Of a stretch of 64,000 nt of DNA, positions 2,394 to 29,059 are shown piece after piece; position 1 is the first letter of the stretch; each line of letters opens with the position of its first letter. The translations under genes were made by a program, and so were the position numbers. The notes under the pieces are model-generated. The model was not told where the DNA came from. It did not search any database and was given only the letters and a program-made list of their open reading frames with translations. The stretch comes from Escherichia phage vB_EcoM_G37-3, in sequence record MK327941.1, one strand, 5' to 3'.

Positions 2394-2422
2394 AGTATAG
2401 GGGATCTCGCGATCCCCGTCAA
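2394..2422 (-). promoter_or_regulatory. Early sigma70-type promoter with spacer palindrome (PeSL-like)
   Basis: Minus strand: TTGACG, palindrome GGGGATCGCGAGATCCCC in spacer, -10 TATACT, then leader and AGGAGA RBS. Confidence 0.55.
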
Positions 2423-2431
2423 GCGTTTATT

Positions 2432-2974
2432 TTAATTTTTTCGAATGTATTCAGACCATTCCTTCCCTGTCAGTTCGGTCCCATTCTGGAAACTGAAATA
2501 TTCATACGGCATCGAGTCAAGATAAAACAGGATCATACATCGCGCCATATAATACCAATCACGATTAAAGTAAACTACGTTATCACCATTACCATCAGCA
2601 CCTTTATCATAACCATCGCGGGTACGGGCAACCCATTGAATAGTATCATTTTTCTCACGGATAATAACAGGTTCCCAATATCCAGCACATCCAGCATGAC
2701 CACACGAACAAGTAAGGAAATATTGACCTTTTGCTTTGTTGTCATCCCATTCACGATGGATTGGTTCGATCTCGTGAAACAATGCCAAGCAATCATGATT
2801 ATGCAACACTGGCTTACCATCAATCAATGCATGGAATGTATACAAACGACCAGTAGACAGATAGCTATCCTCACGCTCAACCAGTTCAATAGCAATCTTT
2901 TTAGCTCGTTCTTTGTGTCGTTGTGCTTTACGCTTACGGTTTAATGATTTCATATTCACCCCACACATTATCAA
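2432..2974 (-). CDS. Hypothetical protein (180 aa)
   Basis: Minus-strand ORF in gene chain, start overlaps stop of upstream gene (ATGA). Confidence 0.5.
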   Translation of the reverse strand: MIMCGVNMKSLNRKRKAQRHKERAKKIAIELVEREDSYLSTGRLYTFHALIDGKPVLHNHDCLALFHEIEPIHREWDDNKAKGQYFLTCSCGHAGCAGYWEPVIIREKNDTIQWVARTRDGYDKGADGNGDNVVYFNRDWYYMARCMILFYLDSMPYEYFSFQNGTELTGKEWSEYIRKN

Positions 2975-3510
2975 AGGTCGCGATATAGTACATTATGAAA
3001 ATGAGAACTTGCATTACCAATATTGTAGATAATAAATTCTTCATCCGGCGCTTGCGCTACAAATTGAGTATGAGCAACCGCCACAACCTTAAAAATACGA
3101 TCCGTGATCTTGTGTTTAATTTCTGCCCCTACTTCCATAGGAACATATTCATTTGTTTCTGTTTCAGTCGCAAAACAGCCATCTTCTTCATAAGCACGAA
3201 TAAATCGGTCGCAATCAGTACGCTTAACAAATTCAAGAGTATATAATTCTCGTGAATTGTCGGTATAGACCAATACAGAATTATTATGATAGCGAATCAC
3301 ATACAGGTTATTATCATCGTCAATTACGCAAAAGCTACGGATTCCTTCGCCTTGACTCCAGCAGATATTAACCACCGTTCCTCTAATAAAAAAACTTTCC
3401 TTTAAATTAAAACTAGCCAATGTGCTAGCGTGCATTTTAACAACAACACCATCACCAATTTCCAGTTTACGAAGTTTAACTTCTTTGCTCAGTACACAAA
3501 ACATCATCAT
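2971..3510 (-). CDS. Hypothetical protein (179 aa)
   Basis: ORF starting MMMFCVLSKE with RBS GAGGA upstream and PeSL-type promoter. Confidence 0.5.
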   Translation of the reverse strand: MMMFCVLSKEVKLRKLEIGDGVVVKMHASTLASFNLKESFFIRGTVVNICWSQGEGIRSFCVIDDDNNLYVIRYHNNSVLVYTDNSRELYTLEFVKRTDCDRFIRAYEEDGCFATETETNEYVPMEVGAEIKHKITDRIFKVVAVAHTQFVAQAPDEEFIIYNIGNASSHFHNVLYRDL

Positions 3511-3539
3511 GTTGTCCTCTCGTTGTTTTCGATGTGAGC

Positions 3540-3567
3540 ATTATACATTAGCTAATCATGTTGTCAA
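3540..3567 (-). promoter_or_regulatory. Early sigma70-type promoter
   Basis: Minus strand TTGACA, 16-nt spacer, TATAAT, followed by conserved leader and RBS. Confidence 0.55.
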
Positions 3568-3576
3568 CACCCCAAA

Positions 3577-3606
3577 ACGAAAAAGCCGACCCTTTCGGAT
3601 CGGCTG
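3577..3606 (-). terminator. Rho-independent terminator downstream of nrdD
   Basis: Minus strand hairpin AGCCGATCC-GAAA-GGGTCGGCT followed by T-rich run. Confidence 0.6.
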
Positions 3607-3610
3607 AAAT

Positions 3611-5473
3611 TTACATGTGCTTAACGCGGTTTACCATCTCGGAGTGTTTCCCGTGGTTGAATGGACGCAGATCAACAGATCCAAGATATCCACTAACGCG
3701 ACGGATAACATTCATCTTTTCCAGATTGTCATTACCGCAATCAGGACAAACAAAACCAGACTCGGTCGCTCTCATTTCCTTAGTGGATCCGCATACATGA
3801 CATACATCAGAAGGAGTATTAACACCGAAGTAGTGCAATTTATCCATTGCATAGTCTACTACAGTTTCAAGACCTTTCAGGTTGTTTTTCATGTCTGGGA
3901 ACTCAACATAAGAGATCATGCCACCGGACGCCAGCCAGTGATAATCTTTCTCAAAGTCGATTTTCTCAAATGGAGTGACTTTCCGGTCTACGTCAAGATG
4001 GAATGAGTTGGTGTACCAGTCTTTATCGGTAGCACCCTTAACAATACCAAATTGCTCTCGGTCCAGTCGATTAAATCGATAGCAAAGGCTCTCGGCTGGC
4101 GTACCGTAAAGACTAAACCCAAGTCCGGTTTCATCCTTCCATTTTTCAGTATAATGACGCAAGATCTTAAGAATATGTTTACCGTATCGCTGCGCATCTT
4201 CCGAATCAAACGGATGAACATCAAACAGGACGCTCAATACCTCATGTAAACCAATATATCCAAGAGAGATACTAGCGCGACCATCTTTCAGAACTTCCAA
4301 AATTTCATCGTTTTGATGAATACGGAAAAATGCACCTTCTGTATACAGTACAGGAGCAACATTGGCTTTAGCCCCTTTTAAAGCGTCTACGCGACTCATG
4401 AGCGCATCAAAGCAAATAGGCATACGATTAGCTAGCTCTTGTTCGAATAGCTCAATTCTGCGCATTACAGACGCTTTACCAGCACGACGCGCGGCAATAA
4501 GGGCAATACGCGGAAGATTTAGAGTCACAACACCTAAGTTATTACGTCCGTCTAATACTTCTTCGCCTTTCTCATTATGCCACACACCCAGGAAGCTACG
4601 ACAACCCATCGGGCTAACCGGAACACTAGATCCGGTGATACTACGGTTATTCTTCGCAGAGATATAATCAGGGTAAAGACGCTTACTCGAACATTCCAAT
4701 GCAAGTTGCTTAATGTCGTAGTTCGGATCTTCCGGTTTAAGGTTTAATCCTTCTTCTAAGAACATCACCAGCTTAGGAAACACCGGAGTGATACCATCTT
4801 TACCTAAACCTTTAGTTCGAACGTTCAGGATCGCTTTCTGAATCAGTTTTTCTTCCCAGCTAGTACCCATACCAAAGGTTAAAGTCACAAAAGGCGTTTG
4901 ACCGTTGGTGGAGAACAAAGTGTTGATTTCATATTCCAACGCTTGATACCCGTCTAAAGTTTCTTTTTCTGTCTTCTCTTGTGCATAGAGAGTATCAGCT
5001 TTGATTCCGTAGGTTTCGGCATCAGCAAGGTGTTTATGATATGTTTTCTCAACATACGGTGCTAACACCTGATCGATGTTTGCGATTGTGGTCCCGCCAT
5101 ATTGATGACTTGCCACCTGTGCGATAATTTGAGCGGTTACAGCACAAGCAACGCCGATTGATTTCGGACTTTCGATTTGTGCGCTACCCAATTTAAAACC
5201 ATTCTCTAACATGTCTTTTAGATTAACAAGACAGCAGTTAGTAAACGGCATAGCGGGTGCATAATCCATATCATGATAATGAATATCACCGTCTACATGC
5301 GCTTTATAGATGTGCTCAGGTAACACGGTTTTAGCAATCTGTTTAGACACAGCACCAGCAATCAGATCTCGACGTGTCGGGAATGTTCGCGCGTCTTTGT
5401 TCGCGTTCTCTTTGCTTACTTCGTTTTCTTTACCCGTTGCGATCTCTGTAATGTCTTTGATTAGTTTTTCCAT
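3611..5473 (-). CDS. nrdD: Anaerobic ribonucleoside-triphosphate reductase NrdD (glycyl radical enzyme), uninterrupted
   Basis: 620-aa ORF collinear with T4 NrdD (FPTRRDLIAGAVSK, PFTNCCLVNLKDMLENGFKLG, C-terminal Cys cluster CHVCGS...CPDCG). Confidence 0.95.
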   Translation of the reverse strand: MEKLIKDITEIATGKENEVSKENANKDARTFPTRRDLIAGAVSKQIAKTVLPEHIYKAHVDGDIHYHDMDYAPAMPFTNCCLVNLKDMLENGFKLGSAQIESPKSIGVACAVTAQIIAQVASHQYGGTTIANIDQVLAPYVEKTYHKHLADAETYGIKADTLYAQEKTEKETLDGYQALEYEINTLFSTNGQTPFVTLTFGMGTSWEEKLIQKAILNVRTKGLGKDGITPVFPKLVMFLEEGLNLKPEDPNYDIKQLALECSSKRLYPDYISAKNNRSITGSSVPVSPMGCRSFLGVWHNEKGEEVLDGRNNLGVVTLNLPRIALIAARRAGKASVMRRIELFEQELANRMPICFDALMSRVDALKGAKANVAPVLYTEGAFFRIHQNDEILEVLKDGRASISLGYIGLHEVLSVLFDVHPFDSEDAQRYGKHILKILRHYTEKWKDETGLGFSLYGTPAESLCYRFNRLDREQFGIVKGATDKDWYTNSFHLDVDRKVTPFEKIDFEKDYHWLASGGMISYVEFPDMKNNLKGLETVVDYAMDKLHYFGVNTPSDVCHVCGSTKEMRATESGFVCPDCGNDNLEKMNVIRRVSGYLGSVDLRPFNHGKHSEMVNRVKHM

Positions 5474-5486
5474 TGTATCACCTATG

Positions 5487-5512
5487 AAAAAGCGGGATTT
5501 TCTCCCGCTCGT
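5487..5512 (-). terminator. Rho-independent terminator
   Basis: Minus strand hairpin GCGGGAGAAAATCCCGC followed by TTTTT. Confidence 0.5.
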
Positions 5513-5518
5513 TGATAG

Positions 5519-6013
5519 TTATTTTACCAGTTCTGCTAATTCTTTTTCCGCCGATTCCAGTTCAGCCTTAAGCTGTTTAATCTCTTGTCGCTTCTTATTA
5601 GCGGCTTCCTGCTTACTATTTCGGATAACCTGATCTAGATACAACTCCCAATCCTGAATATTTTTGATAATGTAACCGTCAACATTAATTGGTCGGAGAT
5701 TCAGTAAAGCTTCCAGTTTAGTCGCAAAAACTTTAATTGCTGGTGTGAAGTATTCATATTCGTTATCTTCAAACCAATAACCTAGACTTGCATTATCAAT
5801 ACGAAGACGAAGTTCAAGATCAAGGTCTTTATCTTCGGTGTAAAGATCTTTCACCTGACCCAGCGAACTAACAACAACTTTAAAACGAATTTTATCTACA
5901 CCACCAAACACATCAGTAAGTATACCAGCAATTGAGCTATTAGCGCAAGATTGGTCGCTGAATGCGTCAAGGTTTTCTTTAGTTACAGTATACCAAACAT
6001 CTTGTACCCACAT
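5519..6013 (-). CDS. Hypothetical protein with C-terminal coiled coil (164 aa)
   Basis: ORF with ATG at 6011-6013, RBS GAGGAT. Confidence 0.5.
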   Translation of the reverse strand: MWVQDVWYTVTKENLDAFSDQSCANSSIAGILTDVFGGVDKIRFKVVVSSLGQVKDLYTEDKDLDLELRLRIDNASLGYWFEDNEYEYFTPAIKVFATKLEALLNLRPINVDGYIIKNIQDWELYLDQVIRNSKQEAANKKRQEIKQLKAELESAEKELAELVK

Positions 6014-6043
6014 AATATAATCCTCTCGTTGTTAAGTGGGAGT

Positions 6044-6071
6044 ATTATAGCATACTCCCTTCGCATGTCAA
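6044..6071 (-). promoter_or_regulatory. Early promoter with palindrome around -10 (PeSL-like)
   Basis: Minus strand TTGACA, spacer, TATAAT embedded in inverted repeat GGGAGTA...TACTCCC. Confidence 0.55.
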
Positions 6072-7246
6072 GCACTAACTTTTTTCTTTACTGCTTTCAC
6101 CTTCTGGCGAATTGCTCGAATCTCTTCGATCTCTTTTTCAGTATCTTTAACAATTTCTTTGCGATTCTGAATATCTTTATCGAGATTATCATCAAGTTTA
6201 GGCAGCATGTCAATCAAGAACTTTTTAAAGTCTTTCAGGTTTCGGATAACAGCACCTTCACCCATTACCGCCACGCCTACACCATCCGGCAGGTCGCCAA
6301 ACAGTTTAACCAGTTCAGACAGATGATCATGATCTTCTAGTGCTTCTTCCGGTTCAGATGGCAGTTCCACAAAGTAATAACGTTCATCATTGCTGATCAG
6401 GTGATACCAGCAAAGCCCAAAAGATTTAGGAGTATATTCTACACCACCAACTTCAACTGCGTCAACACTTCCGAAAGAATCTACTTTAGTTACCTTAAAT
6501 CCATGTTCCAGCGTTTTAATAATTTCAATAACATGACTGGATACGGTTTCAGTATTAAACCAATGAGGCAAATTATGTGGATTTGGCTTGTATCGTTCGC
6601 CTACTTTAAATCTCTGACCACGCTCTTGCATACGGACATATTCAACTCGCGTGATTTCCGCGAAGTATTCAAATTCGCCACCGTCAAACACAGAAGCCCA
6701 TTGATCACAAAAACGATCTGCCTTAACAGTTTCACCTTTCGCGGTGATCATGGTAGCTGATCCGTGCAATTCTTCTTCAACTAAAAAGCCATATTCGACA
6801 AAATCAACAAGTTTCATAGCTTCTTTGTGATCTGGATCATGCTCTCCCCAGAATCGCTTAAATTCTTGCAAACCTTCTGGGGTAAACGAATAACATTTAC
6901 CTTTTTCAAAGTAAGTCGGCATTGCATCCTCTTTCTTGTTCATCGCTTCGTATGCCTCTTTTGAGATGCGTTTAAAGTATTTACGCTCATTGTGCATAAT
7001 CATAGTAGCCCAATAATCAACAATATCATTAGCGGAATAAACTACATCTCCAGCTTCAATAGTAATAACATGACCGTGGTCATCTTTTTCTAATACTTTA
7101 AAGCCCTTTTCTACGATTTCAGCAACACGAATATGACCACGGCGCGAAGCATCGGTCAGAATAATTGAATAGCGAGAAAAGTCTAGAAACTCATCTTTAC
7201 CGCCTTCACGGAATGCATAGTAATGACCTTCAAAGAATTTAGCCAT
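6068..7246 (-). CDS. Hypothetical protein, KTYK/GFKV/ERKYF paralog family, three internal repeat units (392 aa)
   Basis: Repeated GFKV-x-VD-x-G and ERKYFKR motifs shared with ORFs 7303-7887 and 7884-8156. Confidence 0.55.
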   Translation of the reverse strand: MAKFFEGHYYAFREGGKDEFLDFSRYSIILTDASRRGHIRVAEIVEKGFKVLEKDDHGHVITIEAGDVVYSANDIVDYWATMIMHNERKYFKRISKEAYEAMNKKEDAMPTYFEKGKCYSFTPEGLQEFKRFWGEHDPDHKEAMKLVDFVEYGFLVEEELHGSATMITAKGETVKADRFCDQWASVFDGGEFEYFAEITRVEYVRMQERGQRFKVGERYKPNPHNLPHWFNTETVSSHVIEIIKTLEHGFKVTKVDSFGSVDAVEVGGVEYTPKSFGLCWYHLISNDERYYFVELPSEPEEALEDHDHLSELVKLFGDLPDGVGVAVMGEGAVIRNLKDFKKFLIDMLPKLDDNLDKDIQNRKEIVKDTEKEIEEIRAIRQKVKAVKKKVSA

Positions 7247-7276
7247 AATATAATCCTCTCGTTGTTTAGATGGGAG

Positions 7277-7305
7277 TATCTTACTACTCCCGTTTCATCA
7301 TGTCA
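7277..7305 (-). promoter_or_regulatory. Early promoter with palindrome around -10 (PeSL-like)
   Basis: Minus strand TTGACA, 17-nt spacer, TAAGAT within GGGAGTAG...ACTCCC inverted repeat. Confidence 0.55.
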
Positions 7306-7887
7306 AGCGTTAAATGACTTTTGGATCTCTTTCAGTTCAGCTACTTTATCGGCGCTATATTTTGCTTGATGTTCCATGCGCTTAAGCTCACCTTTGATAT
7401 AGGTTTCTAGCTTAGGTTTATTCTCAATCAGAAAATCTTTCAAGTCATCGGCATTTTTAAAGTATAGCTGATTATCAAAGCTAAAATCTTCCAGCGTCAA
7501 TGATACCAAAGAAGACTTCGCAAACAAGTTAATCAGATCTTCCAGAGATTCTTCTTTCTTAATTGGTTTCATTTCTTCAAACTGCTTTTTAGTGATGCGT
7601 TTAAAGTATTTTCGCTCGTTTGCAGCAATCAGAACAGATGCACCTTCATACTCATGAGTTTCTACCAGATACACACGCCCCATCGCATCAACAGTGAGAA
7701 CTTTAAAGCCGTTACAAAGCACGTCATACAAGAACTTATTATGTTGCGGACATCGTTTGATAAATTCTGCGACTGTTTCTGCACTACGGAAAGTATAGTA
7801 ACGACCTCGTTCAAAAACAGCGTCATTGGGTGACTTAACCGAATATACTTTGTATGTTTTCTGTACCATAATATAATCCTCTATCAT
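7303..7887 (-). CDS. Hypothetical protein, same paralog family (194 aa)
   Basis: Contains NERKYFKRITKKQFEEM and GFKVLTVD motifs; C-terminal LKDFL-x-KPKL motif as in ORF 680-1180. Confidence 0.55.
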   Translation of the reverse strand: MIEDYIMVQKTYKVYSVKSPNDAVFERGRYYTFRSAETVAEFIKRCPQHNKFLYDVLCNGFKVLTVDAMGRVYLVETHEYEGASVLIAANERKYFKRITKKQFEEMKPIKKEESLEDLINLFAKSSLVSLTLEDFSFDNQLYFKNADDLKDFLIENKPKLETYIKGELKRMEHQAKYSADKVAELKEIQKSFNA

Positions 7888-8156
7888 TTCACTAATTGAA
7901 CAGCACGGAACAGAATGCGGTCACACGGAAGCAGCATAAATTCCCAACGCGGATCAAAGTCTTTAGCGGTATATGTTTTCCCATCAACCGAGATTTCACT
8001 TACATAACCAATAGGTGACACTTTAAGAACAGTAAATCCATTCTTGATGACTTCGTAGGTATCTTTCAATCCTTCGTAGTCATCCTCTAGGAAGTCTTTA
8101 CGTGCTTGCTCAGATTTAAAAACATAGGCCACACCGGATTTAAACATCTTACGCAT
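7884..8156 (-). CDS. Hypothetical protein, short member of same paralog family (90 aa)
   Basis: GVAYVFKSEQARKDF and NGFTVLKV motifs. Confidence 0.5.
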   Translation of the reverse strand: MRKMFKSGVAYVFKSEQARKDFLEDDYEGLKDTYEVIKNGFTVLKVSPIGYVSEISVDGKTYTAKDFDPRWEFMLLPCDRILFRAVQLVK

Positions 8157-8187
8157 TGTTGATTCTCCTTCTTGATTAGATGGGAGT

Positions 8188-8216
8188 ATTTTACTACTCC
8201 CATTTCATGTTGTCAA
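8188..8216 (-). promoter_or_regulatory. Early promoter with palindrome around -10 (PeSL-like)
   Basis: Minus strand TTGACA, 17-nt spacer, TAAAAT within GGGAGTAG...ACTCCC inverted repeat. Confidence 0.55.
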
Positions 8217-8219
8217 CCA

Positions 8220-8708
8220 CTATCTTAATCTTTGTATGAATTGTTTCTTATACTTCTTCGTGATCTCTTCTCTTGTATCCGCGTCACAGTAATCGAAACC
8301 TTCTGCGTCCATAATAGCAACCATCTCCGCTCGTGTCAAGCGTGAAAATCGTTTTACTTTATCAACAGCATATTGAGGATGTAAATGATTGTTGGTGTAG
8401 TCTCCTTTGATGTAATTAACATAGTTTGTAGCCCAAACAACGAAATCAGCACCTAAAGCACCAACACCAAACCGTTTAAAGTCTCCGGTCAACGATCCTT
8501 CTAGGCGGTTGCAACACGAATGAAGCAATCCCCTTACGCGGCCTTGCCCTTTCCCATCTAGATCGTGGTCGTGGTCAAGATGGTTTTTGCTCATATCCTC
8601 AAAAAGTGGCAATTGACAAAGGGGGCAAATGCCCCCCTGTTTTTCGAATAGTTCTTGTTTGTACTCTTTAGCACTCTTAGCAGTCAGTAACATAAATTCA
8701 CCCTCCAA
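8220..8708 (-). CDS. 49: Endonuclease VII (Holliday junction resolvase), T4 gene 49 homolog
   Basis: Matches T4 gp49 zinc-binding core (CPLCQ...HLDHDH...GKVRGLLHSCCN). Confidence 0.85.
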   Translation of the reverse strand: MEGEFMLLTAKSAKEYKQELFEKQGGICPLCQLPLFEDMSKNHLDHDHDLDGKGQGRVRGLLHSCCNRLEGSLTGDFKRFGVGALGADFVVWATNYVNYIKGDYTNNHLHPQYAVDKVKRFSRLTRAEMVAIMDAEGFDYCDADTREEITKKYKKQFIQRLR

Positions 8709-8717
8709 AGAAGGTAT

Positions 8718-9011
8718 TTAACCATTAATCTTGTTTTTGACTACAAAGGATCGGAACTCATCAAAACCACCGATATAATCACCATCATAGAAAATCTGCG
8801 GCATGGTGGCAATAACTTCTACCCCTGCGCGATCCTGAATATCGGCAATGATAGAATCAATCTTTACCGGACGACCGTTTTCGTCCACACCATCATTAAC
8901 CGGAATGTAGATGTAAGGGATCTTACGCGCTTCACAAAGGCGCTTTGCATTCTGGCAATACTTACAGTTGTAACCTTCAAAACCAAAAATTTCTACCATG
9001 TTATACCTCAA
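8718..9011 (-). CDS. nrdC: Glutaredoxin/thioredoxin-like NrdC
   Basis: CKYCQNAKRL redox motif and MPQIFYDGDYIGGFDE resemble T4 NrdC. Confidence 0.75.
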   Translation of the reverse strand: MRYNMVEIFGFEGYNCKYCQNAKRLCEARKIPYIYIPVNDGVDENGRPVKIDSIIADIQDRAGVEVIATMPQIFYDGDYIGGFDEFRSFVVKNKING

Positions 9012-10251: not shown

Positions 10252-10261
10252 TATATAATCC

Positions 10262-11055: not shown

Positions 11056-11069
11056 AAATTCACCTCACA

Positions 11070-11378
11070 TTATTTCACGTTAACGCCGTCATAAATCCAG
11101 CCGACGCTATTTGGTTTAACAGTTTTACCATAGGATGCATACTTAATCAAGCATGGGTTAACATCATTATCAAATCTTCCTAAACGTACTCCCAAATCAG
11201 GAATATCCATGTATGCGGCTTTATATCCCCATGTGCCATATTCAGAATCAATCTCAACCGGACGGCCTTTAAAAGCATACACTACACCGTGACGGTCAAC
11301 GATAACATAACAATAACCAGCCGGAAGATACACAGTTTCGCCGTAAACTTTAACTGGAGTAGCAGAAGAGATAAACAT
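11070..11378 (-). CDS. Hypothetical protein (about 103 aa)
   Basis: Likely ATG at MFISSATPVKV preceded by RBS GAGGAT and PeSL-type promoter; track start 11414. Confidence 0.5.
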   Translation of the reverse strand: MFISSATPVKVYGETVYLPAGYCYVIVDRHGVVYAFKGRPVEIDSEYGTWGYKAAYMDIPDLGVRLGRFDNDVNPCLIKYASYGKTVKPNSVGWIYDGVNVK

Positions 11379-11413
11379 AATATAATCCTCACATCGTTCA
11401 TTTGATGCGGTCA

Positions 11414-11441
11414 TTATATGATAACCGCATTTTCATGTCAA
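11414..11441 (-). promoter_or_regulatory. Early promoter with palindrome around -10 (PeSL-like)
   Basis: Minus strand TTGACA, spacer, TATAAT embedded in GCGGTTATCATATAATGACCGC inverted repeat. Confidence 0.55.
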
Positions 11442-11447
11442 CAGTTT

Positions 11448-11756
11448 TTAAAAATCTTCTTCCGGTTTATATCGACCGTCATCAACTGGTTTTGGGCTGA
11501 ATCCGGTATGTTTGCGCGGCTTCGCTTCCGGTTTCCCCGCAATCATCAAACCAAAACATTTCAGCCCCTTATAACACATAACAATATCAACCACGGTCCA
11601 CGTTATAGGCCATACGATTGCAGCAATACAAAATGCTCCTGTATCGACCTCTTTGGTGTCCTTGTCGAATCTGGCGTACAAGCAGAATACTAGATACGAG
11701 ATCATTGCACCCGTAGTCCAGATATAAAGCACACTGACAATATCTTGTGTTGTCAC
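11448..11756 (-). CDS. Hypothetical membrane protein (two predicted TM helices)
   Basis: GTG start with RBS GGAGGA at 11761-11766; hydrophobic segments MISYLVFCLYA and IAAIVWPITWTVVDIVM. Confidence 0.45.
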   Translation of the reverse strand: MTTQDIVSVLYIWTTGAMISYLVFCLYARFDKDTKEVDTGAFCIAAIVWPITWTVVDIVMCYKGLKCFGLMIAGKPEAKPRKHTGFSPKPVDDGRYKPEEDF

Positions 11757-11766: not shown

Positions 11767-12045
11767 TTACATGTCTTGCAGTGCATAAAAGCATTTTTCT
11801 TCATAGTCATAGAAAATGTCAAAGTATGCTTTTTCTACATACTCACCATTGATCCAAGCGGCAGTAACAATCAGAGTGGTCCAGTTCGATCCGCTCTCAA
11901 CGGTAAAGGTTTTAATACCCAGCTTCGCTGCCAAGTCGAACGCAAACCGGACGCAACCACGGCAGGAAGTGATATTTGAAGTTTTGATTTTAAAGCCACC
12001 GCGAGTTTTGGTAATTTCTACTTTAGCGAAAGACAGGTTGCTCAT
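11767..12045 (-). CDS. Hypothetical protein (92 aa)
   Basis: ATG 12043-12045 preceded by RBS AAGGAGAATCAA and PeSL-type promoter. Confidence 0.5.
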   Translation of the reverse strand: MSNLSFAKVEITKTRGGFKIKTSNITSCRGCVRFAFDLAAKLGIKTFTVESGSNWTTLIVTAAWINGEYVEKAYFDIFYDYEEKCFYALQDM

Positions 12046-12087
12046 TTTGATTCTCCTTAAGAAAGTGTGTTTCGTTTTGATGTGTGT

Positions 12088-12116
12088 AGTATAGGGGATA
12101 TGTGATCCCCTGTCAA
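12088..12116 (-). promoter_or_regulatory. Early promoter with spacer palindrome (PeSL-like)
   Basis: Minus strand TTGACA, spacer GGGGATCACATATCCCC (inverted repeat), TATACT. Confidence 0.6.
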
Positions 12117-12123
12117 CAACTTT

Positions 12124-12333
12124 TTATGATTTTAGTGAATTAACCACTACATCAAAATGATGTACAGAGTACACCTTATTAAACACATATTCATCGTGTT
12201 TAGGAATAGCCCCTAATCGCTCTATTTCGCTCGCTGACACGATAAACCGTTTATCCGGTGCATTTACCTTATATGCTTCAACAACGCACGGAAAACGCGT
12301 TTTAGCGAGTTCGGGATAGTTTTCTGACTCCAT
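12124..12333 (-). CDS. Hypothetical protein (start uncertain; track ORF 12124-12453 overlaps next ORF)
   Basis: ORF 12124-12453 overlaps 12353-12694 by 100 nt in another frame; internal ATG at 12331-12333 avoids overlap. Confidence 0.3.
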   Translation of the reverse strand: MESENYPELAKTRFPCVVEAYKVNAPDKRFIVSASEIERLGAIPKHDEYVFNKVYSVHHFDVVVNSLKS

Positions 12334-13655: not shown

Positions 13656-13917
13656 TACATGCTTTTAATGCATCAGTCGAGGTGTCATAGCGAGTATTAT
13701 CATAGCACCAGTAACCATCTGTCAACTGATAAATTAATCCATCCTTTTTAGCGTCGATGAAAGACAATTCTTTGAAAGTTTCTACTTTCTTTGCTGATAC
13801 TCCACGGTCACGGCGTTTATAGAGTTTAGCTAAAACGCGTTCAGCTTGTTCCTCTTTATCGCCAGACAGATCCCAGATGACGTTTCTGATATGCTTGATT
13901 AATTGTTCAGTGGTCAT
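13627..13917 (-). CDS. Hypothetical protein (96 aa)
   Basis: ORF with RBS and PeSL-type promoter upstream. Confidence 0.45.
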   Translation of the reverse strand: MTTEQLIKHIRNVIWDLSGDKEEQAERVLAKLYKRRDRGVSAKKVETFKELSFIDAKKDGLIYQLTDGYWCYDNTRYDTSTDALKACNDHLRKTSI

Positions 13918-13948
13918 ATTTGATTCTCCTTAGTTGGTATGGTTATCA

Positions 13949-13975
13949 TTATACGGGGATTTCTCCCCGTGTCAA
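13949..13975 (-). promoter_or_regulatory. Early promoter with spacer palindrome (PeSL-like)
   Basis: Minus strand TTGACA, spacer CGGGGAGAAATCCCCG, TATAAT. Confidence 0.6.
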
Positions 13976-13978
13976 CAA

Positions 13979-14200
13979 TTAAATGATCTCTGCTTCACCG
14001 TTAAGGAAGAAAGACCATGTTTTGTTAGGATAACGAAGCGCCCATGATTCAGCAGTTTTAACACCAGCTTCGAACAATTGACGGCTGGTTACTTTAGCCA
14101 TACCATCTTCGATGGCAACGTTTTCAATAATCATCGGGTACTTAGCACCACGCATGAAACCGAAGCCAGCGGAAGATTTGATAATTTTAACAGTTGCCAT
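13979..14200 (-). CDS. Hypothetical protein, small-protein family (73 aa)
   Basis: ATG at MATVKIIKSSAGFGFMRG with RBS AGGAGAATCAAAA; track start 14254 lies inside promoter. Confidence 0.5.
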   Translation of the reverse strand: MATVKIIKSSAGFGFMRGAKYPMIIENVAIEDGMAKVTSRQLFEAGVKTAESWALRYPNKTWSFFLNGEAEII

Positions 14201-14239
14201 TTTTGATTCTCCTAGAAAGTGTCGTGTTTCGATGGGTGT

Positions 14240-14268
14240 ATTATGCAATAACACCGGATCGCTGTCAA
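14240..14268 (-). promoter_or_regulatory. Early sigma70-type promoter (PeSL-like cassette)
   Basis: Minus strand TTGACA, 17-nt spacer, CATAAT, conserved leader ACCCATCGAAACACGACAC. Confidence 0.5.
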
Positions 14269-14286
14269 CACTTTCTAAGAAAAATT

Positions 14287-14571
14287 TTAAATTAATCGAA
14301 TATAACCAAGAATTTCAGCGCCTTTAGCCAGTCCTAAAACTTCCCATTCAAGGTCGCCGTAGTCATAATTTGCAACCATCAACTGACCATTTTTCATGCA
14401 GCAATCATGAGAGAAAATTTTCCCCGTATAAACTACGATAGTAATAAACTTTCCTGATTCTGGCGGTGTGGAAGACAAAGCGACCATATGACCATTCAGC
14501 TTAGTCACCAGTGATGGAACAATAAAATTCGGGCTTACCTGAATACCGTTAAATTCGTTTGTGTCTTTCAT
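14287..14571 (-). CDS. Hypothetical protein (94 aa)
   Basis: ORF in gene chain. Confidence 0.45.
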   Translation of the reverse strand: MKDTNEFNGIQVSPNFIVPSLVTKLNGHMVALSSTPPESGKFITIVVYTGKIFSHDCCMKNGQLMVANYDYGDLEWEVLGLAKGAEILGYIRLI

Positions 14572-15253: not shown

Positions 15254-15452
15254 TCTTCACGGTCTCCATAATTGTTTTGTAAGCCAGCTTAAGATGATCA
15301 CCGAAAAACTTTGCAGTGTTACCCTTCGGATCGCGGAGCATGGTTTCTACGATCTCATCGGCAGTAACAATTTCTCCTTTCTTTGCTGCATGTTCTACCA
15401 TATACTTCAAAGTTTCTTCGGAAGCAAGTGCTGCGGCTACTGGATTAATCAT
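15243..15452 (-). CDS. Hypothetical protein (69 aa)
   Basis: ATG 15450-15452 with RBS and PeSL-type promoter. Confidence 0.45.
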   Translation of the reverse strand: MINPVAAALASEETLKYMVEHAAKKGEIVTADEIVETMLRDPKGNTAKFFGDHLKLAYKTIMETVKNAK

Positions 15453-15481
15453 TTTGGTTCTCCTTTGTTGTCGATGTGTGC

Positions 15482-15510
15482 ATTATGCTATACCCTATTC
15501 CTGTTGTCAA
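15482..15510 (-). promoter_or_regulatory. Early sigma70-type promoter (PeSL-like cassette)
   Basis: Minus strand TTGACA, 17-nt spacer, CATAAT, conserved leader. Confidence 0.5.
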
Positions 15511-15520
15511 CACCTAAAAA

Positions 15521-15550
15521 CGAAAAAGCCACCCTTTCGGATGGCTTTTT
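15521..15550 (-). terminator. Rho-independent terminator
   Basis: Minus strand hairpin GCCATCCGAAAGGGTGGC followed by TTTTTCGTTTTT. Confidence 0.6.
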
Positions 15551-19759: not shown

Positions 19760-20095
19760 TTATCCTTTCTTAAACAAATTGCGAATCCAGTATACAAACG
19801 GGATTTCTTTAAACTTGAACTTGTCAATAGTTAATTCTTTAGTAGCAAGATGAATACCATAAGCATCATGTGTCACGATATGCCATTTTCTATAGTCCAA
19901 ATGTGAACAACCGTCTGGATCTAGGTTAATAAGAGTTTCTCGCTCACTAGGATTATTTTTCCACAATTTTGTAATAGGATCGCACATAATTCGACCTAGC
20001 GTACCATGAATAATCTCACAACGGTAAAGTTTTCCAGCAGTGAGATAGGCGCACCCGTCATAGTCTGTATAAACAAACACTTCTTTAACACTCAT
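19760..20095 (-). CDS. Hypothetical protein, GC(S/A)HLD small-protein family
   Basis: Probable start MSVKEVFVYTDYDGCAYL with RBS and PeSL-type promoter; motif DPDGCSHLD. Confidence 0.45.
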   Translation of the reverse strand: MSVKEVFVYTDYDGCAYLTAGKLYRCEIIHGTLGRIMCDPITKLWKNNPSERETLINLDPDGCSHLDYRKWHIVTHDAYGIHLATKELTIDKFKFKEIPFVYWIRNLFKKG

Positions 20096-20123
20096 TTTAA
20101 TACTCCTTTGTTTCGATGGGGGT

Positions 20124-20152
20124 ATATTACTACCCCCGTTTTGTTGTGTCAA
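20124..20152 (-). promoter_or_regulatory. Early promoter with palindrome around -10 (PeSL-like)
   Basis: Minus strand TTGACA, 17-nt spacer, TAATAT within GGGGGTAG...ACCCCC inverted repeat. Confidence 0.55.
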
Positions 20153-20413
20153 CTACTTTTTCAAGATTTTTTTAATTGCGTTCCAAAGACCTTTATTCTC
20201 AGGTTGTTTTGGTTCTTCGATCAGTGTCCAGGTTCGACCGTCTAAGTGTGCACAATTTTTAAGACAAATAAAAATCTGGTGTCCTTTATCATCACGGATA
20301 TAACCACTATTCGCAAATCTTTCATGTGGTGTATATTCATACAGTGTATTTGGTGTAATATACTTGCGGTTACTATAAGGTGTCATCACATACATCATGG
20401 TACTAACTCCCAT
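20153..20413 (-). CDS. Hypothetical protein, GC(S/A)HLD family
   Basis: Motif NCAHLDGRTW shared with neighbours. Confidence 0.4.
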   Translation of the reverse strand: MGVSTMMYVMTPYSNRKYITPNTLYEYTPHERFANSGYIRDDKGHQIFICLKNCAHLDGRTWTLIEEPKQPENKGLWNAIKKILKK

Positions 20414-21921: not shown

Positions 21922-21933
21922 ATATCACCTCAT

Positions 21934-23021: not shown

Positions 23022-23056
23022 CTCCAGTGAACGGGGAGAGATCCTTAGATTGTCTC
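23022..23056. other. Stable GC-rich stem-loop downstream of endolysin gene
   Basis: Inverted repeat AACGGGGAGA...TCTCCCCGTT. Confidence 0.4.
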
Positions 23057-23075
23057 CCCGTTGATGGTTAATATT

Positions 23076-23685: not shown

Positions 23686-23686
23686 A

Positions 23687-24269: not shown

Positions 24270-24330
24270 AGAAAGCCCTCCAGCGAGATAAATTAGTGCG
24301 GGTAGTGGAATGTACTACCCGCTTTGTTAA

Positions 24331-25083: not shown

Positions 25084-25104
25084 AATATAATCCTCACATT
25101 AAAT

Positions 25105-25302
25105 CTAAAATTTGTTAACGACGAATTGCATAATTAGACTAATCACAAACATTGCAAACCAAGTATAAATGCAACAGATAAAAGCTACATACAATTCAAT
25201 CTGGTCAGAGAATACACCGGGTAAAAGCATTAGCAAAATAACAACAGTAAAGACGCTAGCGATACCCGCAACAAAACCAATATCATTTTTACTAATCGTC
25301 AT
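25105..25302 (-). CDS. Small membrane protein
   Basis: Hydrophobic ORF; ATG just inside TTG track start. Confidence 0.4.
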   Translation of the reverse strand: MTISKNDIGFVAGIASVFTVVILLMLLPGVFSDQIELYVAFICCIYTWFAMFVISLIMQFVVNKF

Positions 25303-25303
25303 C

Positions 25304-25447
25304 AAGTCACCGTTTTGTAAAGAAACACAATAAAATCCAAGACAAGAAAGACAGTGTAAATGATCATCGTCAAGACAGTAAACACTGTCAAATTTTCATC
25401 GTTAGTTAATTCATAGTCGCCCATCCATACAATCACAAGATATAGCA
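25304..25447 (-). CDS. Small membrane protein (about 48 aa), coordinates approximate
   Basis: MLYLVIVWMGDYELTNDENLTVFTVLTMIIYTVFLVLDFIVFLYKTVT; stop overlaps next start (TGATG). Confidence 0.25.
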
Positions 25448-25502
25448 TTGAAAGAATGGAAGCACCTACGAAGTTAAAAAAAACATATTCTTGAGCGTCA
25501 TA

Positions 25503-25693: not shown

Positions 25694-26020
25694 TTAGAAA
25701 GAAACAGTTTTCAAGAAATCCAGATTTTTAGTACCGAAAACAGAAAAGTAGTGTTTTCCTTTTTCGGTTTTAGAGAAAGCGATTGTCTTCTCTACATGGT
25801 GACGGAAGCCAGACAGACGATCACCCAGGTCAAGGCGGCAAGCGTAAGTAGTGCCGTTTTCGAAAGTAACCTCGATTTGAGTTTTGTCATATTCGCTTTC
25901 ATAGGCTTTTGCTGCCGCGTCCTGTGCTTTACGCTCGAAGTCTTCGAAGTGGAATACTTCGTTTGCGTTAGCGAATACAGAAGATTCAGAGAAGATAACT
26001 TTAACAGATACTGGTTTCAT
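25694..26020 (-). CDS. Hypothetical protein (108 aa)
   Basis: ATG with RBS AAGGAGTATCAA and PeSL-type promoter. Confidence 0.5.
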   Translation of the reverse strand: MKPVSVKVIFSESSVFANANEVFHFEDFERKAQDAAAKAYESEYDKTQIEVTFENGTTYACRLDLGDRLSGFRHHVEKTIAFSKTEKGKHYFSVFGTKNLDFLKTVSF

Positions 26021-26052
26021 TTTGATACTCCTTAGTAGTTCGTGTTTCGTTT

Positions 26053-26081
26053 CGATGGGTGTATTATGCTATACACCCTCT
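26053..26081 (-). promoter_or_regulatory. Early sigma70-type promoter (PeSL-like cassette)
   Basis: Minus strand TTGACA, 17-nt spacer, CATAAT, conserved leader ACCCATCGAAACGAAACACGAAC. Confidence 0.5.
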
Positions 26082-26099
26082 CGCGTGTCAACAACTTTT

Positions 26100-26288
26100 T
26101 TAGTCTTTTTTCATAATTTCTAGAGCAGTTTCTACAGCACCTTTCCAACCTTCCCACATAATGGACATAGTAAGGAAGTTAAAGCACCCGCAGGAATCAA
26201 CCTTTTTAGAGATAAACCATTCTACAAACGCTTCGCTCATACCATGCTCTTTAGCGGATTCGCGTAATTGTTCAATTTGGTCTTCCAT
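26100..26288 (-). CDS. Hypothetical protein (62 aa)
   Basis: ORF in gene chain. Confidence 0.45.
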   Translation of the reverse strand: MEDQIEQLRESAKEHGMSEAFVEWFISKKVDSCGCFNFLTMSIMWEGWKGAVETALEIMKKD

Positions 26289-26514: not shown

Positions 26515-26742
26515 TTATAGTTGATCAGCAATGTATGCGGTGCATTTGCGGAGTTTAGCCATAGCACCACCTTTCATGTCGCTTGCGCCTACAATGTTCA
26601 TGATCTCTAAGCGATCAGCCGGATTCAGTCTAGTAGCCAAGATCTGGTTAGCCAGTTCCATTTTACCCATCTGCGGTTCCATCTCAAACATTTCACGCTC
26701 AAAGTCGATAATTTCTTTTGCTGCGTCTTTAAAGTTAATCAT
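26515..26742 (-). CDS. Hypothetical protein (75 aa)
   Basis: ATG with RBS GGAGGACCAAA and PeSL-type promoter. Confidence 0.45.
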   Translation of the reverse strand: MINFKDAAKEIIDFEREMFEMEPQMGKMELANQILATRLNPADRLEIMNIVGASDMKGGAMAKLRKCTAYIADQL

Positions 26743-26771
26743 TTTGGTCCTCCCGTTTCGTTGATGGTTGT

Positions 26772-26800
26772 ATTGTAGGGGAGTTATCCTCCCCTGTCAA
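26772..26800 (-). promoter_or_regulatory. Early promoter with spacer palindrome (PeSL-like)
   Basis: Minus strand TTGACA, spacer GGGGAGGATAACTCCCC, TACAAT. Confidence 0.6.
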
Positions 26801-26808
26801 CACTTTTA

Positions 26809-26994
26809 TCAGAAATATGCAATATAGTTTGCCAGTCCTACAGAGTCATCATTCGGCATTGCTTTTACCGCCAGTTCAAACCCTGCTTCAACTTTCTGTT
26901 TAGCGGATTCTTCGTTATAACCCCAGATGACCAGAATAGCTACTACGTTTTCTTTGCTTACTGCTTTCAGTGCTTTAGTGATGCGACGTGCCAT
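26809..26994 (-). CDS. Hypothetical protein (61 aa)
   Basis: ATG with RBS GGAGAATCAAATT and PeSL-type promoter. Confidence 0.45.
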   Translation of the reverse strand: MARRITKALKAVSKENVVAILVIWGYNEESAKQKVEAGFELAVKAMPNDDSVGLANYIAYF

Positions 26995-27040
26995 AATTTG
27001 ATTCTCCGTTTAAGAAAGTGTGTTTCGTTTCGATGGGTGT

Positions 27041-27069
27041 ATTATGCTATAGGCGTGATCTGGTGTCAA
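27041..27069 (-). promoter_or_regulatory. Early sigma70-type promoter (PeSL-like cassette)
   Basis: Minus strand TTGACA, 17-nt spacer, CATAAT, conserved leader. Confidence 0.5.
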
Positions 27070-27094
27070 CAACTTTTTTAAAAAATTTTAGGCA

Positions 27095-27125
27095 ATAAAA
27101 AAGCCACTCCGAAGAGTGGCTTATA
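27095..27125 (-). terminator. Rho-independent terminator
   Basis: Minus strand hairpin GCCACTC-TTCG-GAGTGGC followed by TTTTTT. Confidence 0.6.
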
Positions 27126-27271
27126 GGGAAGGTAGCGAATCTTCCTTATCTCCAACCTGCTAGCGGCCTAGCAAGTGAATGCTTTAGCGTACCGGATCAC
27201 CCCCATACGCTGTAATAAATGCGGCTAGGTGACGTCCAAATCATTCTAACCGCGCTGTCTTTAGTTCACTA

Positions 27272-27490
27272 TTATTTATATCGCTTTCTCTCGCGACGTT
27301 TTTGATCTTCTTCCTTGATAGAGTTAAACGCATCAAAAAGACACATGACACTAATAATAAACATAACCGTATTTTCTACGATATCCCACGGCTTCGCATC
27401 GGTACAGATTCCCCAAACTGTAAGAAATGCAAATAGTGCAGAAGAGATCACAAGCATGATACTTGCTAAGATATAAAAAGTCATTTTCAT
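27272..27490 (-). CDS. Small membrane protein
   Basis: Hydrophobic ORF with basic C-terminus KEEDQKRRERKRYK. Confidence 0.4.
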   Translation of the reverse strand: MKMTFYILASIMLVISSALFAFLTVWGICTDAKPWDIVENTVMFIISVMCLFDAFNSIKEEDQKRRERKRYK

Positions 27491-27993: not shown

Positions 27994-28236
27994 TCATAGA
28001 TCACAGAGCCATCTTAAAGCACCACATAAAGCGATCAAAAGACTAGGTATAAACGAGACTAAAACAAGACTACAAAAATCATCTAAGGTAACGCCGGAAT
28101 AGCTACCTACTGTAACAACACCGATCATCAGACACAGAAAGAAAACAAATGCAATCAGAAACAAAGTATTGCTAAACAGTTTAGTGATCATTAGACACCC
28201 CACGACGATCAATTTCAAAAACTTTTTTACCATCAA
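27994..28236 (-). CDS. Small membrane protein
   Basis: Hydrophobic 80-aa ORF. Confidence 0.4.
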   Translation of the reverse strand: MMVKKFLKLIVVGCLMITKLFSNTLFLIAFVFFLCLMIGVVTVGSYSGVTLDDFCSLVLVSFIPSLLIALCGALRWLCDL

Positions 28237-28384
28237 CGAAGCATGTCACAACTGCCTCGTTGACTTCCGCAAATTGTTGTGTTACCCACTTAAGGTCAGA
28301 GCGAAACAATGTTCTATTAATAACAAATGTTTTACCTTTCTTATCCATACCCATAAATTTTGCTTTAACCATATCCAATTCCAT
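28181..28384 (-). CDS. Hypothetical protein (67 aa), overlaps downstream ORF in another frame
   Basis: ORF with ATG; 56-nt overlap with 27994-28236. Confidence 0.35.
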   Translation of the reverse strand: MELDMVKAKFMGMDKKGKTFVINRTLFRSDLKWVTQQFAEVNEAVVTCFVDGKKVFEIDRRGVSNDH

Positions 28385-28552
28385 ATTATCACCTTATTTG
28401 CTAATCGCTAAACCCAATCCGAAGAGAGCACCCGATGCTACAGTATACCCGAAAGTTTCAAAGGAAGTAAAGATATCTAAGCCGCCAGCTAACAGAGTTG
28501 CTGTAAACAGAGTACCAGCTACGAACATAAAAGTTTTACCGATAAATTTCAT
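28385..28552 (-). CDS. Small membrane protein (about 55 aa) missed by ORF track
   Basis: ATG 28550-28552 with RBS AAGGAGAATCAAA and PeSL-type promoter; MKFIGKTFMFVAGTLFTATLLAGG... Confidence 0.35.
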
Positions 28553-28583
28553 TTTGATTCTCCTTTCGTTTGTTTGTGGGGGT

Positions 28584-28612
28584 ATCTTACTACCCCCGTT
28601 TCATGTTGTCAA
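28584..28612 (-). promoter_or_regulatory. Early promoter with palindrome around -10 (PeSL-like)
   Basis: Minus strand TTGACA, 17-nt spacer, TAAGAT within GGGGGTAG...ACCCCC inverted repeat. Confidence 0.55.
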
Positions 28613-28618
28613 CTATTT

Positions 28619-28991
28619 TTAAGAATATTTTACTTCGTCTACAATATCTTTCATGACATTGATTTCCATTCCGGTCAGAACACGTTGGAACATGTGCTGC
28701 ACATACGCTTTCAGGTATTCATTTGATGGCTTGCTATCGAAAGTCTTTTTAGTGTAGTAGTCATCACCGAAAGCTACTGTAATTACATTTTCGTCGTCGT
28801 TCCAAGCGATATAAGCAAATTTGCCGTTATCCCAGAAGCGAGCACTAATTGCTACTTTTGTTGAATCGAATCCTACTTCGCTGTGAGATTCAAGAACTAC
28901 TTGCGTGCCAGTTTCTTTATGAATGTAGTAGCGGGATACTAAGTCAAAGTTACGGGTGTAGTGACATTCAAATTTATCTTTAAACATCATC
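28619..28991 (-). CDS. Hypothetical protein (about 124 aa)
   Basis: Probable ATG at MMMFKDKFECHY with RBS AGGAGAATCAAA; track start 29062 lies in promoter. Confidence 0.45.
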
Positions 28992-29030
28992 ATTTTGATT
29001 CTCCTAAGTGTGTTTCGTTTCGATATGTGC

Positions 29031-29059
29031 ATTATGCTATAGTCGTTTATGGTTGTCAA
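29031..29059 (-). promoter_or_regulatory. Early sigma70-type promoter (PeSL-like cassette)
   Basis: Minus strand TTGACA, 17-nt spacer, CATAAT, conserved leader. Confidence 0.5.

Follow-up and report, generated by a model that had tools for sequence, protein, structure and literature searches.

Promoter-early stem-loop cassettes in an early-gene region of the Krischvirus phage vB_EcoM_G37-3

Promoter-early stem-loop elements (PeSLs) were defined in the T4-type phages Phi1 and RB49 by Arbiol, Comeau, Kutateladze, Adamia and Krisch (2010, Genome Biol Evol 2:140, PMC2839356) as composites of a consensus sigma70 promoter, an AT-rich upstream tract and a polyG/polyC stem-loop, with a Shine-Dalgarno sequence and a start codon at the 3′ end. 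The stem-loop is stable and occupies one of five positions (in the spacer, across the -35, across the -10, upstream of the -35, or just before the start site), of which a location between -35 and -10 or overlapping the -10 is the commonest; Phi1 was found to have 52 PeSLs and RB49 51, most of them ahead of ORFans in hyperplastic regions. A 64,000-nt stretch of Escherichia phage vB_EcoM_G37-3 (accession no. MK327941.1), hereafter called the window, carries a near-identical module upstream of many minus-strand genes, and an earlier note on this DNA likened these modules to the PeSL elements of T4-type phages. The likeness proved well founded, as the modules are orthologous to the published PeSLs of Phi1 and RB49 and match their architecture point by point. 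On these sequence grounds the repeated modules are PeSL cassettes, already published in 2010 for the same phage group, and there is nothing new in their discovery.

In the defining study, wild-type PeSL206/205 yielded ~13,000 Miller units (mutations in the -35 or -10 were found in most other clones), the stem-loop of PeSL211/210 cut lacZ expression as strongly as rrnB T1, and inverse polymerase chain reaction recovered mini-circles from PeSL × PeSL exchange, with crossovers between the -10 and the ATG (PMC2839356). Exchange was proposed to proceed via ordinary homologous recombination over ~50-100 bp of repeated promoter sequence, and PeSLs were likened to morons and integron cassettes (PMC2839356). 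Like PeSLs, these are small genes that move with their own promoter and terminator into permissive intergenic sites; PeSLs, for their part, have no known integrase or attC-like site. The early-promoter consensus of RB49 agrees with 5′-end mapping of early transcripts (Nolan et al. 2006). Comeau, Arbiol and Krisch (2014, PMC4122927) extended PeSLs to T4/PST and KVP40/nt-1. As in the window, those are composites of promoter and stem-loop, lie in hyperplastic regions and adjoin genes that vary between relatives, but their promoters (TTTACW...TAYWAT and TTGYVH...TAWWAT) and stems (AGNA-loop-TCNT and A3-4G3-loop-C3T3-4) differ from the RB49-type near-perfect sigma70 consensus and the Gn/Cn stems of the window copies. 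Our literature search found no functional work on PeSLs later than Comeau et al. (2014).

By sequence identity, the window is a Krischvirus segment from a phage of mosaic make-up within the T4-like coliphages of the RB49/Phi1/JSE group. Positions 3000-12000 showed 100% identity to Escherichia phage vB_EcoM_G5211 and 96% to Phi1, ECD7 and other Krischvirus phages, and the best match of positions 12000-35000 was JSE (97.2% over 95%; G5211, 98.0% over 83%). The region from 2394 to 29059 consists of small early genes on the minus strand, interspersed with nrdD, nrdG, endonuclease VII, dam, tk, regB and dmd, and 16 minus-strand cassettes lie within this 27-kb run of small hypothetical early genes. 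At least 16 dispersed cassettes had been claimed, and the module is present on that strand at every one of the 16 sites; the positions given for them are the 3′ ends of the -10 hexamers on that strand, except that 26053 lies 10 nt from the hexamer end at 26063. An nhmmer profile hidden Markov model built from the 16 cassettes recovered exactly these (expectation value, E, 5e-19 to 7e-10) and one new plus-strand copy at 43958-44037 (E 6e-9), and its search of the window returned nothing beyond the 17 copies below E = 0.8 (next best, E = 0.86). A loose sigma70 scan was discarded as a definition of the family, being too noisy (110 matches vs ~68 in shuffles), and was replaced by the profile. The 17 cassettes, referred to below by the first base of the -35 box, are listed here; P values for inverted repeats are from 2000 shuffles of the same 39 bases, in the region from the -35 to about position -1.

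2340..2445, minus strand: PeSL with repeat in the spacer; -35 TTGACG 2422-2417; -10 TATACT 2399-2394; repeat GGGGATC/GATCCCC 2400-2417 (7 bp, P = 0.003); ATG 2351.
3497..3605, minus strand: PeSL of the upstream-terminator type; hairpin 3605-3584 with T-run; -35 3567-3562; -10 TATAAT 3545-3540; ATG 3510; internal repeat P = 0.71.
6007..6089, minus strand: PeSL with repeat straddling the -10; -35 6071-6066; -10 TATAAT 6049-6044; repeat GGGAGTAT/ATACTCCC 6038-6059 (8 bp, P = 0.002); ATG 6013.
7237..7324, minus strand: PeSL with repeat straddling the -10; -35 7306-7301; -10 TAAGAT 7283-7278; repeat GGGAGTA/TACTCCC 7272-7291 (7 bp, P = 0.001); ATG 7246.
8156..8235, minus strand: PeSL with repeat straddling the -10; -35 8216-8211; -10 TAAAAT 8193-8188; repeat ATGGGAGTA/TACTCCCAT 8180-8203 (9 bp, 0/2000 shuffles), annotated as a terminator in the G5211 record; ATG 8156.
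11371..11462, minus strand: PeSL with repeat straddling the -10; -35 11441-11436; -10 TATAAT 11418-11413; repeat 11405-11430 with an inner T·G wobble on the gene strand (P = 0.0025); ATG 11378.
12039..12134, minus strand: PeSL with repeat in the spacer; -35 12116-12111; -10 TATACT 12093-12088; repeat AGGGGAT/ATCCCCT 12093-12111 (P = 0.001); full conserved leader; ATG 12045.
13912..13998, minus strand: PeSL with repeat in the spacer; -35 13975-13970; -10 TATAAT 13953-13948; repeat ACGGGGA/TCCCCGT 13953-13970 (P = 0.0005); ATG 13917; junction of the gp38-cassette indel.
14191..14290, minus strand: PeSL with a weak repeat across the -10; -35 14268-14263; -10 CATAAT 14245-14240; repeat GGTGT/ACACC 14235-14255 (5 bp, P = 0.09); ATG 14200.
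15444..15550, minus strand: PeSL of the upstream-terminator type; hairpin 15550-15523 with T-run; -35 15510-15505; -10 CATAAT 15487-15482; ATG 15452.
20086..20172, minus strand: PeSL with repeat straddling the -10; -35 20152-20147; -10 TAATAT 20129-20124; repeat GGGGGTA/TACCCCC 20118-20137 (0/2000 shuffles); ATG 20095.
26017..26112, minus strand: PeSL with repeat straddling the -10; -35 26091-26086; -10 CATAAT 26068-26063; repeat GGGTGTAT/ATACACCC 26057-26078 (8 bp, P = 0.003); ATG 26020.
26731..26822, minus strand: PeSL with repeat in the spacer; -35 26800-26795; -10 TACAAT 26777-26772; repeat AGGGGAG/CTCCCCT 26777-26795 (0/2000 shuffles); ATG 26742.
26991..27122, minus strand: PeSL of the upstream-terminator type; hairpin 27122-27101 with T-run; -35 27069-27064; -10 CATAAT 27046-27041; exact conserved leader; ATG 26994.
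28544..28631, minus strand: PeSL with repeat straddling the -10; -35 28612-28607; -10 TAAGAT 28589-28584; repeat GGGGGTA/TACCCCC 28578-28597 (P = 0.0005); ATG 28552.
28982..29096, minus strand: PeSL of the upstream-terminator type; hairpin 29096-29076 with T-run; -35 29059-29054; -10 CATAAT 29036-29031; ATG 28993.
43940..44038, plus strand: the 17th copy, absent from the earlier note (E 6e-9); hairpin AAGCCAA...TTGGCTT with T-run 43940-43966; -35 TTGACA 43979-43984; -10 TATAAT 44001-44006; ATG 44036.

The window copies have the promoter, the AT tract, the stem-loop, the Shine-Dalgarno/ATG end, the hyperplastic location and the Phi1/RB49 orthology that characterize PeSLs. In an eight-genome comparison of the window with the syntenic region of G5211, GEC-3S, Phi1, JSE, RB49, G2248 and JK32, 16 profile matches in the same order were present in the syntenic 35-kb region of each of the seven relatives, and the GEC-3S record has promoters annotated at the orthologous sites. 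A near-identical Phi1 ortholog was found for 15 of the 16 minus-strand cassettes, the exception being 13975, whose promoter core is swapped in Phi1. The PeSLs of Phi1 and RB49 share genus, sequences and architecture with the window copies (AT-rich tract, TTGACA-N16/17-TATAAT, Gn-loop-Cn, Shine-Dalgarno, ATG), and nothing essential differs; at 13975 the window has a spacer-hairpin promoter, where Phi1, RB49 and JSE have the gp38 cassette and then an upstream-terminator promoter.

The -35 hexamer is TTGACA in 16 of the 17 copies and TTGACG at 2422, and the spacer to the -10 is 17 nt long in 13 copies and 16 nt in four. The -10 boxes deviate from TATAAT by 0-2 bases (TATAAT and CATAAT in five copies each, TATACT and TAAGAT in two each, and TACAAT, TAATAT and TAAAAT once each), the last three being additions to the set previously given. 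AT content in the 22 nt upstream of the -35 is 71%, against 60% (standard deviation 10%) for random 22-mers of the window. The ATG lies 57-75 nt from the -35 and is preceded by GGAG or GAGG in each cassette, and a ribosome-binding module, GGAGAATCAAA, is present in 10 cassettes and nowhere else on the minus strand. The conserved leader said to precede the ATG is of narrower occurrence: the exact 20-nt leader was found four times within 2 mismatches (0.02 expected), but the remaining copies lack it in full. Each cassette spans the gap from the stop codon of one early gene to the ATG of the next, and in cassettes with an internal hairpin the upstream stop codon lies within ~25 nt of the -35. The plus-strand copy is located within the baseplate module, 3′ of a gp8-like baseplate gene and ahead of three small inserted open reading frames (ORFs) including a methyltransferase.

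An inverted repeat of 7-9 bp, GC-rich, lies inside the promoter in 11 of the 17 copies, each with P <= 0.003 against shuffles. It is within the spacer in four (2422, 12116, 13975 and 26800) and straddles the -10 in seven (6071, 7306, 8216, 11441, 20152, 26091 and 28612), and 14268 has a marginal repeat across the -10 (5 bp, P = 0.09). The shuffle test detected no repeat in the spacer or across the -10 at 3567, 15510, 27069, 29059 and the plus-strand copy. These five copies have a hairpin with a T-run directly upstream of the promoter, those of the four minus-strand copies being flagged by a terminator scan and that of the plus-strand copy, outside the scanned range, being read from the sequence. 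A repeat in the spacer or straddling the -10, as had been claimed for all sites, is therefore present at 12 of the 16 and absent from 3567, 15510, 27069 and 29059. The repeats do not behave as chance matches that copies fail to conserve, since 11 copies reach P <= 0.003 and the stems are nearly invariant across genomes. Three palindrome subfamilies had also been said to co-segregate with particular gene groups; this fits the adjacent GGGAGTA trio (6071, 7306 and 8216), but the others are dispersed, with unrelated genes downstream. Within the trio, homologous first genes follow only 7306 and 8216 (E ~5e-6), which points to local duplication.

The eight-genome comparison revealed how unevenly the parts of the cassette vary. 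Variable columns numbered 2/168 in the stems, 1/96 in the -35 and 1/45 in the -10, as against 10/77 in the loops, 27/192 downstream and 30/126 (24%) in the other spacer bases (stem vs other spacer columns, Fisher p = 2e-10). These counts are strong evidence that the hairpin stems are under selection. The left arms fall in a part of the spacer where sigma70 makes no base-specific readout, so the constraint on the stems exceeds the promoter's own need. Functionless repeats, copied as passengers with duplicated promoters, are accordingly disfavoured to the point of being scarcely credible. Shared descent is indeed clear for the GGGAGTA trio and for the near-identical pair 20152/28612, but passengers would not leave the spacer stem arms as invariant as the -35 and -10 next to spacer bases that vary in about a quarter of columns, nor would they account for at least six unrelated stem sequences, each a significant repeat.

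The stems differ among copies, each with a complementary partner: GGGGGTA, GGGAGTA, GGGTGTAT, GGGGATAT, GCGGTTAT, GGGGATC, GGGGAG and CGGGGA. There are at least six distinct stem sequences, the loops range from 3 to 12 nt and the stem position shifts by ~10 nt relative to the -35 and -10. A count of pair types was made on a centre-aligned set chosen for pairing and is informative on stem diversity only. From this diversity it is the pairing that is conserved, rather than one stem sequence. The same diversity bears on the idea that the repeats are operators in duplex DNA, bound by a dimeric phage protein that shuts off early promoters or targeted by a site-specific recombinase. Most stems share a G-run/C-run theme, the repeats overlap the core promoter, where a bound protein would block RNA polymerase, and Arbiol et al. 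speculated on a recombination protein binding GGGG...CCCC (PMC2839356). At least six different stems at two positions ~10 nt apart, with loops of 3-12 nt, do not amount to a fixed half-site, however, and reports on these genomes list no integrase or recombinase outside the usual T4-type set (PMC2839356). Imperfect stems (see below) carry G·T pairs of one strand only, which matters to a folded single strand and not to a duplex site. A duplex operator is thus quite unlikely.

Two further features of the stems and loops were observed. In the RB49 ortholog of the 2422 hairpin the 4-nt loop is reverse-complemented (GGGGATC-TCGC-GATCCCC), GCGA being present in the window and six other relatives; such a loop flip at 2400-2417 is as expected from strand switching at a palindrome. 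Dam sites (GATC) are common within the promoter cores (-35 to -10) and often make up the stem (GGGGATC...GATCCCC), and the phage encodes a Dam methylase at 9008-9820. Observed and expected numbers of GATC in cores were 18 vs 6.7 in RB49 and 17 vs 6.6 in LF73P4 (both significant, genome-wide); in the window, GATC occurs in cores at 2400-2417, 12105-12111, 14255-14262 and 27056-27060 (5 vs 2.6 expected, not significant). The enrichment test is confounded by shared descent of the GGGGATC stems.

Which strand folds was approached through imperfect stems in the window and 15 loci from 9 related Krischvirus genomes (~120 unique promoter cores), among them Phi1 114300-164270, most of the remaining RB49 genome and all of LF73P4; the profile matched 43 sites in RB49 and 42 in LF73P4, vs the published 51-52 per genome. 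Counted under a strict stem rule with inspection by eye, the imperfect stems contained six independent gene-strand G·T wobbles, no A·C pairs and four other mismatches (6 G·T vs 0 A·C, two-sided binomial p = 0.03). The wobbles are at site 11441, in the GEC-3S ortholog of 8216, at Phi1 L008 4538, at Phi1 L008 17724 (with its RB49 and LF73P4 orthologs), at Phi1 L008 44469 and at RB49 L010 30635 (with its LF73P4 ortholog). This asymmetry in the sequences speaks for the gene strand as the one that folds, in the simplest case as RNA. Comparison of minimum free energy (MFE) between sense and antisense strands of the cassettes showed no bias, because most stems are perfect palindromes. Transcription is predicted to start at the A of CAT, 7 nt past the -10, a position that coincides with the 3′ arm of the hairpin or lies beyond it, so that the cassette's own transcript would lack the hairpin and only RNA reading through from upstream would contain it.

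Taken together, the modules are very probably PeSL cassettes of Krischvirus in which an early promoter is combined with a hairpin that would insulate successive transcription units. The near-consensus sigma70 promoter would be read by unmodified host RNA polymerase straight after infection, in a layout of AT-rich tract, promoter, C-rich stretch before the CAT start site, conserved leader and strong ribosome-binding site. The most likely role of the hairpin, once in read-through RNA, would be that of a terminator, attenuator or 3′ barrier between successive early transcription units. Intrinsic (Rho-independent) terminators likewise have a GC-rich hairpin, and a proper T-run is present in all five upstream-type copies. 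Where the hairpin is in the spacer, the stem is followed directly on the gene strand by the A/U-rich -10 box, which stands in the place of the terminator tail and may act as one; one such stem-loop, that of PeSL211/210, terminated in vivo, the Phi1 212/210 gap reading TTGACA-GGGGATCGGTGATCCCC-TTATAAT, a spacer-type hairpin with the -10 as A/U-rich tail. We infer that every copy is active and that the straddling hairpins also terminate or attenuate.

Several points weigh against this account. The straddling hairpins are followed by AUCGAAAC-type sequence and, unlike intrinsic terminators, have no U-run on the gene strand; two of the eight (20115-20140 and 28576-28599) were flagged as terminator-like, on the plus strand only. 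The experimental tests cover a single stem-loop and a single wild-type promoter, which both come from spacer-type PeSLs other than the window copies. The G·T asymmetry consists of six events only, and strand-biased mutation could be a partial source of it because the gene strand is G-rich over C. Most of the indels that do not fall in PeSLs are homing-endonuclease insertions or changes inside operons.

Since the terminator tail is absent, the straddling hairpins may not be terminators. They might instead be 3′-end protective or processing structures, with cleavage at the downstream GGAG (RegB is encoded by phages of this group), or targets of a structure-specific factor that moves cassettes in integron-like fashion, to which together we assign a small chance. 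The plus-strand hits would suit another role, in which straddling hairpins are intrinsic terminators of antisense transcription, such as late-phase transcription entering the early region. A T-rich tail accompanies the hairpins at 20115-20140 and 28576-28599 when they are read on the plus strand but is lacking on the gene strand, and in plus-strand sequence the stems of the 7306 and 8216 orthologs are followed by GTTTC or ATTTC; but only two of the eight straddling hairpins pass the scan, spacer-type hairpins lack a plus-strand T-run, and the wobbles favour gene-strand folding 6 to 0. Moreover, the T-rich tail complements the GAAAC spacer that the copies share, and common descent may account for it. 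Antisense termination is therefore very unlikely, and insulation of early transcription units is retained as the preferred role.

In addition to transcription, the cassettes may serve recombination. With ~90-100 bp of near-identical sequence in ~40-50 copies per genome, they would be homology patches for the phage recombination system, and recurrence of near-identical cassettes would therefore allow an occasional swap, deletion or insertion of gene cassettes. The earlier note mentioned the proposal that such elements drive modular gene shuffling and suggested a search for junctions in relatives. Chained blastn of window positions 1-35000 against seven relatives mapped ~10 distinct indel or replacement events, of which one, at PeSL 13975, has its junction inside a PeSL; the other ~9 lie elsewhere, and the single junction is at chance level (~0.9 expected, as PeSLs ± 100 nt cover ~9% of the region). 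The PeSLs are thus not the main driver of differences in the window, as far as sequence comparison goes, and the published mechanism is compatible with it.

The one PeSL junction (13941-13979) involves a 911-bp gp38 (adhesin) cassette with terminators, which is present in Phi1, JSE, RB49, GEC-3S and JK32 and absent from the window, G5211 and G2248. One edge is the stop codon of the ORF080 homolog and the other lies just downstream of the -10 of PeSL 13975, where homology resumes; the published mini-circle crossovers fall in this zone too. The promoter core at this site is of the upstream-terminator type in Phi1 and of the spacer-hairpin type in the window. The remaining events include the following.

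21331-21930, minus strand: HNH/NUMOD4 homing endonuclease, itself at 21328-21921, with an I-TevI-like DNA-binding domain, inserted after nrdC.11; absent from G5211, RB49, Phi1, GEC-3S and G2248, with a different endonuclease there in JSE.
23091/23122: missing 651-bp gene.
31601-32743, minus strand: 380-aa ORF with CapR homology, a treble-clef zinc-finger and a weak T5orf172 domain, inserted between ORF130 and gp2; shared only with JSE, absent from G5211, RB49, GEC-3S and JK32, with another ORF there in Phi1 and G2248.
12948-13404 and 25099-25498: replacements inside operons.
GEC-3S and JSE: homing endonucleases.

A further event, a 2-kb difference beside PeSL 15510, was considered as PeSL-associated and rejected, as the difference is a deletion within a 714-aa ORF that G2248 and JK32 carry intact; the seemingly intergenic 15552-15781 is the remnant of this ORF, whose first codons and last ~40 nt flank the ~2 kb deletion.

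These events bear on whether the hairpins act at the DNA level, as cruciforms or single-strand structures (for example through endonuclease VII cutting or stalling) that make recombination hot spots, with any effect on transcription incidental. The inverted loop of the 2422 hairpin in RB49 (GCGA vs TCGC), the indel junction at 13975 and the published mini-circles would agree with this. On the other hand, stems of 7-9 bp are short for cruciform extrusion, the published crossovers and the junction found here lie between the -10 and the ATG, outside the stem, only one of ~10 indels is at a PeSL, and an isolated stem-loop terminated transcription in a reporter. A DNA-level role is consequently an improbable explanation of the hairpins, and insulation at the level of RNA is preferred.

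Modular theories of phage evolution call for "linker" sequences, for which PeSLs are among the few concrete candidates; PeSLs also show how a promoter and a transcription insulator can share 45 bp. Their recurrence in a phage 96-100% identical to the type phages is no new biology; the additions made here are modest, namely the measure of selection on the stems, the strand asymmetry toward action at the RNA level, the assignment of the tested stem-loop to the spacer subclass, and the indel count, which falls mostly off PeSLs.

Related hairpins were noted outside the cassette family. G-run/C-run intergenic hairpins at 23040-23075 and 24298-24322 on the minus strand (ACGGGGAGA...TCTCCCCGT and GCGGGTAGT...ACTACCCGC) are of PeSL style but stand alone, with no associated sigma70 promoter and no clear T-run. 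At 16462-16501 (minus strand), just upstream of an rI-like gene, the inverted repeat CCCCAGAT...ATCTGGGG has in its loop a perfect TATAAATA, the T4 late-promoter consensus; the element looks like a late-promoter counterpart of a PeSL and is a terminator in the G5211 annotation. A search of the whole window against Rfam gave zero matches. A 181-nt non-coding stretch (27095-27280, minus strand), between the ORF 27272-27490 and PeSL 27069, starts right after an TATAAATA motif resembling a late promoter and ends in the terminator 27122-27101. It folds far more stably than shuffled versions (MFE -64.6 kcal/mol, z = -4.3) and is 96.5-99% conserved in 8 relatives; Rfam contains no match to it, and a phage small RNA may be encoded here.

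The regB gene is preceded by a sigma70-like promoter (TTGACT-17-TATTAT, 19281-19309, minus strand) that is outside the cassette family and is an annotated promoter in GEC-3S. A second repeated translation-start module, GAGGATTATATTATG, has 12 matches within 2 mismatches (0.2 expected by chance), with minus-strand sites at 6011, 7244, 7867, 10249, 11376, 13614, 18271, 25081, 30517 and 33619; three matches only are within PeSLs, and most others are at internal operon genes. Direct repeats in 95-1700, with a period of ~290-530 bp (families D7, D10 and D17), are accounted for by tandem paralogous small genes (ORF049-051 homologs).

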